The notes beneath the pieces were generated by a model. It was not told the DNA's origin, did not search any database, and worked only from the letters and a program-made list of their open reading frames with translations. Positions 23,347-23,837 of a stretch of DNA of 64,000 bases are shown here, piece by piece. Positions within the stretch are counted from its first letter, which is position 1; each line of letters begins with the position of its first letter. Source of the DNA: Gammaproteobacteria bacterium (GTDB taxonomy: Bacteria > Pseudomonadota > Gammaproteobacteria > JAJFKG01); contig OZ220716.1 of assembly GCA_965116795.1 (NCBI GenBank), forward strand, positions 1,002,503 through 1,066,502. The letters are read 5' to 3'. The translations under genes were made by a program, and so were the position numbers.

Positions 23347-23837
23347 AGCTAGCCAGACAGTCGCTGTGTAATATTTTTTACATGGAGGAAAGTCCGGGCT
23401 CCATAGGACAACGTGCCAGGTAACGCCTGGGCGATGTGTGATAAGCGCATTGACGGAAAGTGCCACAGAAAAGATACCGCCAGTTTAGAGCACGCCGTCA
23501 AGTTAAGATTTTTGCTGTAAAGACAAGGCAAAAATACCGAGGAAAGCGGAGTTTATTTATTATAAATGAGCATTTTCGAGGTGTTTTTAACGCTGTATTT
23601 ACACAAAAAGATAATTTGACGGCGTGCTCTAGTGGTAAGGGTGAAAAGGTGCGGCAAGAGCGCACCGCGCTGTTGGTAACAACAGTGGCAGGGTAAACCC
23701 CACGGGGAGCAAGACCAAATAGGAACTCGTTGTAAAGTGGTCCGCTTAAGAGTTCGGGTAGGTTGCTTGAGGTGTATGGTGACATACATCCTAGATAAAT
23801 GACTGTCCACGACAGAACCCGGCTTATCGGCTAGCTA
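23347..23837 (+). ncRNA. rnpB: RNase P RNA (type A), enlarged by an insertion in P12
   Basis: GAGGAAAGTCCGGGC, AGTGCCACAGAAA, GGGTGAAA, GAGCAAGACCAAATAG, ACAGAACCCGGCTTA; P1 AGCTAGCC/GGCTAGCT. Confidence 0.97.
23486..23631 (+). mobile_element. 146-bp palindromic MITE inserted in rnpB
   Basis: Perfect 16-bp TIR TAGAGCACGCCGTCAA/TTGACGGCGTGCTCTA, TA at both ends, internal GA-tandem hairpin. Confidence 0.85.

Follow-up and report, generated by a model that had tools for sequence, protein, structure and literature searches.

Short tandem STRR repeats are reported from the RNase P RNA gene (rnpB) of heterocyst-forming cyanobacteria (Vioque 1997). They lie in helix P12. That repeats occur inside RNase P RNA is already in print (PMC2229807; here and below, published articles are cited for individual passages). 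Specifically, Rickettsia palindromic elements (RPEs) sit in the tmRNA and M1 (RNase P) RNA genes of Rickettsia (PMC2229807, citing Ogata et al. 2002), a precedent that a sequence-only reading of the locus described here had rightly invoked. In helix P12, no nucleotide is universally conserved, and the helix can sometimes be dispensed with (PMC2858038); its variability and tip expansions are treated in PMC2858038 and PMC12974513. In archaea and eukaryotes, proteins bind the expanded P12 tips of RNase P RNA (PMC12974513), and diverged RNase P RNAs are described from CPR bacteria (bioRxiv 10.1101/2020.03.05.979740). Other short palindromic repeats relevant to this locus include the enterobacterial ERIC/IRU elements, 127-bp MITEs flanked by TA (PMC3184786, PMC2229807), and the RUP elements of pneumococcus, which derive from IS630 (PMC2229807). 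ERIC, RPE and their relation to RNase cleavage are covered in PMC10969869 and PMC3184786.

We analyzed a 64,000-nt stretch of a gammaproteobacterial genome (hereafter the window, to whose numbering coordinates refer unless a contig or locus is named), which carries a class A rnpB gene at 23345..23842 on the plus strand (Rfam RF00010; 498 nt including an insert). The RF00010 match scores 311 bits over model positions 1-367, with the core helices intact and the surplus bases in P12, and is the only match to this family in the 2.45-Mb genome, which is 97.7% complete. The genome also encodes rnpA (PF00825, 74.1 bits, stop-free), and a HARP-type protein-only RNase P was not found in this 97.7% complete genome; for these two reasons, its RNase P RNA is probably in use and needed. 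Beyond the gene, a 35-nt hairpin repeat begins 10 nt past the rnpB 3' end (23852-23886) and has seven to eight genomic copies at 4-5 mismatches, and a 672-aa ORF farther downstream (24302-26320) has no NCBIfam match.

The insert lies at the tip of P12, between the native 5' strand of the P12 base (23476..23485, plus strand) and its native 3' strand with the conserved motif that follows (23632..23646, plus strand), as delimited by the Rfam alignment, by folding, and by comparison with relatives. It is a palindromic element of 146 bp (23486..23631, plus strand) with 36% G+C and a TA at each end, so that the net insertion is 144 nt. The first 16 nt of its left arm (23486..23512) form, TA included, a perfect inverted repeat of the end of the right arm (23605..23631), and the two arms match at 85% over 27 nt. 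The two TA copies, at 23486-23487 and 23630-23631 within the respective arms, are the inferred target duplication, a duplication that is read from the filled site only, as an unoccupied site of this species did not turn up and the P12 of relatives is too diverged. Deleting the element with one TA leaves CCA-GTTTAG-TGG, a P12 gap of 9 nt. Together with its flanks, the insert is predicted to fold as a single rod that continues P12 (-72.8 kcal/mol, z -10.5), a stability equaled in none of 200 shuffles, and the base of this rod is an uninterrupted predicted helix of 21 pairs. In a pairing prediction for the full RNA, 57 pairs fall within the insert and 0.08 between the insert and the remainder. 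The stretch recognized by the shared-core models described below spans 23509..23609 (plus strand) and is centered on a conserved inner hairpin with a G/A-rich internal loop (23549-23569).

These results reproduce what the sequence-only reading had seen in the letters: the coordinates and the perfect repeats of a TA-ended palindrome, the minimal P12 that its excision leaves, the extension of P12 as a long hairpin, and the build of a MITE inserted at TA, that is, a short element with terminal inverted repeats and no transposase. As for the several copies of the same element per genome that are also expected of a MITE, the arms proved single-copy and only the core multi-copy, which lowers the support for an active MITE family and leaves that for a relic copy unaffected. 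A search of the insert against Rfam 15 returned no family at its gathering score (the best hit, to a plant miRNA model, reached 29.5 bits against a cut-off of 130), no terminator-like site was found on the plus strand inside the insert, and the single promoter-like site there is at chance level (1.9 expected). The insert is not an assembly artefact, because contigs from two studies match the sequence: a contig of run X2, possibly the source sample itself, covers 23100-23880 identically, and a 151-nt piece from another study (run X7) spans the left junction identically.

The P12 gap measures 153 nt here and 7-28 nt in all 28 relatives that could be parsed, out of 30 compared (one had a fragmented rnpB, and one could not be parsed, its Rfam span being a normal 376 nt); the 9-nt gap left on removal of the insert falls inside this range. 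The gap is 12 nt in a genome of the same genus and 20 nt in one of the same family, and both lack the insert. The sequence-only reading had proposed this search for an empty site, and had named two observations that together would indicate a native extension, a single copy genome-wide and a similarly long P12 in all relatives; the arm type is indeed single-copy, and the P12 helices of the relatives are short. Elsewhere in the same-genus and same-family genomes, we detected 35 and 23 elements, respectively, with the core described below (150 candidates scored in each). By these comparisons, the superfamily defined by this core is thus old in the lineage, and, among the genomes compared, only this species has the rnpB insertion.

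A BLAST search of the whole element against its own genome gave no second copy. In 60 other genomes, good matches were confined to the middle of the insert and fell in multi-copy repeats of 140-150 bp whose arms differ. An iterated profile of this middle detected 82 sites in the genome, the insert included: 41 in family A, 17 in family C, nine in family B, four in family D, ten unassigned, and the rnpB copy; a 184-nt family adds ten further copies. In the reverse direction, a profile of the 79 other cores of this genome recovers the insert at E 3e-4. A covariance model of 17 cores, built without the insert and without E. coli or Rickettsia sequences, gives the insert 77.5 bits, compared with at most 14.6 bits in 23 ordinary rnpB loci, a score inflated by several training sequences that came from BLAST with the insert; the 79-core profile is the cleaner test. 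In an alignment of 20 core sequences, changes on both sides were seen in 17 of the 20 pairs, with a covariation of 0.62 versus 0.19 in shuffles and at most 0.19 when the alignment was slid, controls that overstate the signal because the aligned sequences are related to one another and were centered on the motif. The core strand is the more stable fold in 72 of the 82 copies. Judged by sequence comparison, then, about 80 other palindromes in this genome, with ends of several types, have the same folded core as the insert.

Family A elements are mostly 122-128 bp long with TA ends, and TA or similar duplications flank the sister copies. Two of them lie in the window, both intergenic: one of 128 bp with IS630-type ends and the common core (38861..38988, plus strand), and one with nested small hairpins (32573..32759, minus strand). 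The tmRNA gene of this genome carries no core insert; the SRP and 6S RNA genes escaped detection. The rnpB of the sister species (L022, genome G001) has an additional short hairpin near P16/P17 that looks like family A ends joined together and is perhaps a second, shrunken insertion. The genome also holds other repeats: a block of about 500 kb (G000:C1, about 1.07-1.55 Mb) consists of multi-kilobase paralogous repeats at 75-94% identity and has no core matches in the 82-site list, and the rpsD-rpoA spacer (about 19250-19412 of the window, minus strand) contains one of about eight genomic copies of a coreless repeat of about 165 nt, which at its end matches a 1016-bp IS found five times in the genome.

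To which transposase such palindromes belong can be read from their ends. The genome has one IS630-family element (G000:C1:1315252-1316453; L126:1381-2582), with 27-nt ends, which is interrupted by a palindrome of about 100 nt related to the 184-nt family. In 38 of the 41 family A copies, the ends lie within 5 mismatches in 26 of the local IS630 end, whereas 295 of 300 random windows need at least 10; two of the 300 gave 2-3 mismatches, presumably by landing on family A copies. A TA-targeting transposase family is thus at work in the genome, as the sequence-only reading had supposed. Similarly, a core-bearing repeat of another genome (G033) matches the 16-nt end of an IS5-type element, which has seven copies in our genome, at 15 of 16 nt and with matching 3-bp flanks. 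The IS630 ends of family A and the IS5-type end of this repeat indicate that one core rides between different DDE ends. The core itself was not found inside any of 12 IS loci tested, the one good match being a neighboring 184-nt repeat.

The ends of the rnpB copy match none of these elements. They differ from the local IS630 end at 13 of 26 positions, the background level, and agree with the local IS5-type end at 7 of 16, which is no match; none of the local IS630, IS5-type, 1016-bp, and IS200-type elements supplies them (the IS200-type (Y1) transposase has seven copies in the genome). Four transposase profiles (PF13358, PF01797, PF01609, and PF13586) gave no match inside the window, in agreement with the earlier observation that it holds no transposase. 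Searches beyond this genome were equally negative: a 19-nt end pattern had 12 matches in a metagenome scan, none of them accompanied by the partner arm at the spacing of an element; a 20-nt pattern, allowing 2 mismatches, had two matches in 400 genomes of the class, versus four for a control, and neither had the partner arm; and BLAST against plasmids returned two records, both for the core only. Since the copy matches neither IS end and no cognate was found, we infer DDE insertion at TA by analogy, the TA ends of an IS630-derived MITE being present on the insert. The rnpB copy looks like a relic of a vanished family and, as neither a cognate transposase nor a second copy was found, is probably immobile now.

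Long P12 helices are not confined to this genome. A pattern scan of GTDB, which covered only this size class and these anchors, revealed 73 rnpB loci from many phyla with 150-180 nt between two conserved anchors, and 70 of them fold closed at the P12 base. Together with the published repeats (PMC2229807), this recurrence removes much of the surprise that had been attached to the locus. The core model finds the core in P12 at E <=0.05 in 10 of the 73 loci, six of which are training sequences of the model and one of which is RPE-5, in a Rickettsia endosymbiont. Adding one locus by similarity and the window's own gives 12 core-bearing P12 inserts, which, grouped by pairwise identity and not by a tree, fall into six inferred independent events: one cluster of seven (61-90% identity) and five singles. 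All six events place the core in sense orientation, and in all of them the sense strand is the better fold; core copies between co-directional genes of this genome are 19 sense and 24 antisense. The two-sided p for six of six is about 0.03, which is suggestive of selection on the folded RNA. This bias is also the sole sign, an indirect one, of the transcription of such inserts as part of the RNA. The cluster of seven, the Rickettsiella-like loci, apparently represents one old insertion that has decayed, and some of its members fold no better than shuffles.

The other 63 long-P12 genes (within L045-L117) have no core and bear other repeat types, and recurring kinds of these were seen in Saccharibacteria, Acidobacteria, Planctomycetes, and Saprospiraceae. 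In one locus, from a WOR-3 genome (CP070834.1; L112:327-443, minus strand), the long P12 contains a 39-codon fragment of a GIY-YIG nuclease (PF01541, 37.7 bits), possibly the remnant of a nuclease-carrying insert.

The insert also holds a stop-free plus-strand frame of 48 codons (23487..23630), from which it had been proposed that the family could enter proteins. The frame is indeed open, and its significance is near chance: an open frame among the six occurs in 18% of shuffled copies as well, and it matches no NCBIfam family. We accordingly set a coding role aside. RPE peptide models run on the insert's two longest open frames likewise detected no family, the positive control (the Rickettsia locus L087) giving RPE5. 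Across the genome, 76 of the 82 core sites are intergenic by a simple ORF caller and two lie inside called ORFs, one an upstream extension of hfq and the other a dsbA-like gene. In the latter, a family A palindrome (G000:C1:528972-529099; L119) sits in frame near the gene start, in the predicted N-region of a signal peptide; relatives of the gene have ordinary signal peptides. This is the sole plausible in-frame insertion among the 82 core copies, and the proposed entry of the family into proteins is not borne out otherwise.

We consider fairly probable a joint account in which a DDE transposase inserted the element and TA was duplicated, the insert is retained in the RNA, and it is neutral there. 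On this model, an IS630-type (or IS5-type) transposase supplied from elsewhere would have recognized the insert's ends, and the TA in the old P12 loop would have been duplicated on insertion, after the split from the sister species. The insert would be transcribed within rnpB and pair only with itself, as a predicted self-contained rod that leaves the catalytic core undisturbed; selection would keep only copies that place the more stable strand in the RNA, and the insert would be tolerated rather than useful. Public sequencing runs add little: two RNA-labeled runs (X9 and X10) contain only the rnpB of other organisms and leave the insert interior uncovered. In X5, X7, X9, and X10 there are joints without the insert, which we read as the rnpB of other species because of their different P12 letters and mismatched flanks; in X5, 90% of sampled words are present and there is no matching contig, and in X4 no insert-skipping joint occurs among the matches listed. 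The main rival to retention, which we regard as unlikely, holds that RNase III or RNase E excises or nicks the hairpin after transcription, so that the RNase P RNA would consist of two pieces held by the P12 base. The 21 uninterrupted pairs predicted at the base of the rod are about the length that RNase III needs, and the genome contains an RNase III-like ORF (by motif match). RNase III cuts transcripts of Correia elements and RNase E those of ERIC (PMC10969869, PMC3184786). However, a cut RNA would be tethered weakly, by a native P12 base of only about 3-7 pairs, and the sense-strand bias fits retention equally well. A bolder version, for which we would claim still less likelihood, is that ERIC-like repeats, RPE-5, and many unnamed bacterial MITEs belong to a single superfamily, in which the strand-specific folded core serves as an RNA signal for a host enzyme; lying sense-first in P12, it would direct a cut that yields a natural two-piece RNase P RNA, or would let RNase III or RNase E control the level of RNase P. 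Were this so, P12 would be a recurring and abundant natural reporter of core action.

Movement by way of the folded core as single-stranded DNA or RNA, through an HUH-type or RNA-based route instead of DDE action at the ends, concerns how the element transposed and is compatible with its retention in the RNA. What is conserved across families and phyla is indeed the core and not the ends (17 of 20 pairs, with the covariation given above); moreover, its strand is the more stable one in most copies, it is absent inside the IS elements tested, and seven Y1 transposase copies are at hand. Nevertheless, we find this route improbable: family A ends lie 2-5 mismatches in 26 from the IS630 end, the end of the G033 repeat is of IS5 type and its 3-bp flanks match, the copies are bordered by duplications of TA or similar sequence, and the covariation controls overstate the signal. 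Could the insert instead be kept for a benefit, such as stability, a protein docking site, or regulation of the RNase P level? Despite the loss of its arm family, the insert is still present in an essential gene, and the P12 insert of another genome (G402) is a similar case; the seven Rickettsiella-like loci retain what is apparently one old insertion; and P12-tip expansions bind proteins in archaea and eukaryotes (PMC12974513). Yet the insert is missing from both close relatives, the seven old copies have decayed, some to folds no better than shuffles, and many unrelated repeat types occupy the same P12 site, and we judge a benefit quite improbable. Finally, the single-copy arms and the 63 coreless long P12 helices of other phyla could suggest that the insert never was mobile and is a native extension grown gradually or an error of assembly. 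Such explanations are largely refuted, and very improbable in our view, given the sharp TA-bounded ends, the short P12 in relatives, the core common to dispersed repeats, and the agreement between contigs of two studies. Insertion, retention, and neutrality thus remain the account that we prefer.

Because RNase P RNA is active in vitro and can be tested by complementation in E. coli, the P12 inserts offer a simple assay for the main question about this widespread and unexplained repeat superfamily: does its core, when part of a stable RNA, get cut, get bound, or stay inert? A literature search, thin on subscription papers, brought up no paper that treats this element or a core common to ERIC and RPE.

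How, then, does the insert compare with described repeats? Like STRR, it is repeat DNA tolerated in an RNase P RNA gene, but STRR are short tandem repeats and not a palindrome bounded by terminal inverted repeats. Among enterobacterial repeats, one was aligned, an intergenic element between rpsB and tsf of E. coli, which we take to be an ERIC site (the E. coli record carries no ERIC label). Family A aligns with it at 68% over 121 nt (E 5), and the 17-core covariance model scores it weakly, at 21.6 bits (E 0.005). Its arms are unlike those of the insert, its ends fail to match the local IS630 element, and the rnpB copy, at 146 bp, is longer than the 127-bp ERIC/IRU (PMC3184786, PMC2229807). With RUP, the insert shares its TA ends and its sister family A shares the match to IS630 ends, and the reported interruption of IS630 by RUP (PMC2229807) parallels the palindrome-interrupted IS630 of this genome; unlike RUP and other IS630-derived MITEs, the rnpB copy has ends for which none of the IS elements detected here provides a match. 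As far as the cited passages go, MITEs are not usually described as having a conserved folded core flanked by the ends of different IS elements. The ISfinder entry MITEEc1_IS630 is named in PMC11602168, whose supplements list many MITEs, and this family might be among them.

RPEs offer a further likeness. The insert, at the top of the 105-146 bp size range of RPEs, is predicted to form a long rod and lies, as some of them do, in the RNase P RNA gene (PMC2229807). The P12 insert of the Rickettsia endosymbiont locus L087 is RPE-5 (TIGR03776, 55.4 bits) and has its folded core, its helix, and its orientation in common with ours. The 17-core covariance model scores three RPE-5 copies at 27.5-32.9 bits (E 1e-4 to 3e-6), by a test devised here and not a published RPE criterion. 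The two differ in their arms; RPE-5 has at least 40 copies in that endosymbiont genome whereas the insert's arm type has one, and the insert matches no RPE protein model and has no protein insertions of its arm type. The core similarity points to shared descent or exchange, and because it is detectable, the insert is probably related to RPE, in place of the convergent RPE-like system that had been proposed. Taken singly, the locus is one more repeat tolerated in RNase P RNA, of a kind known from Rickettsia; it also ties P12 repeats to a core held in common with RPE-5 and the ERIC-like repeat, and points to P12 as a site struck repeatedly by this core, in one direction in all six events counted.
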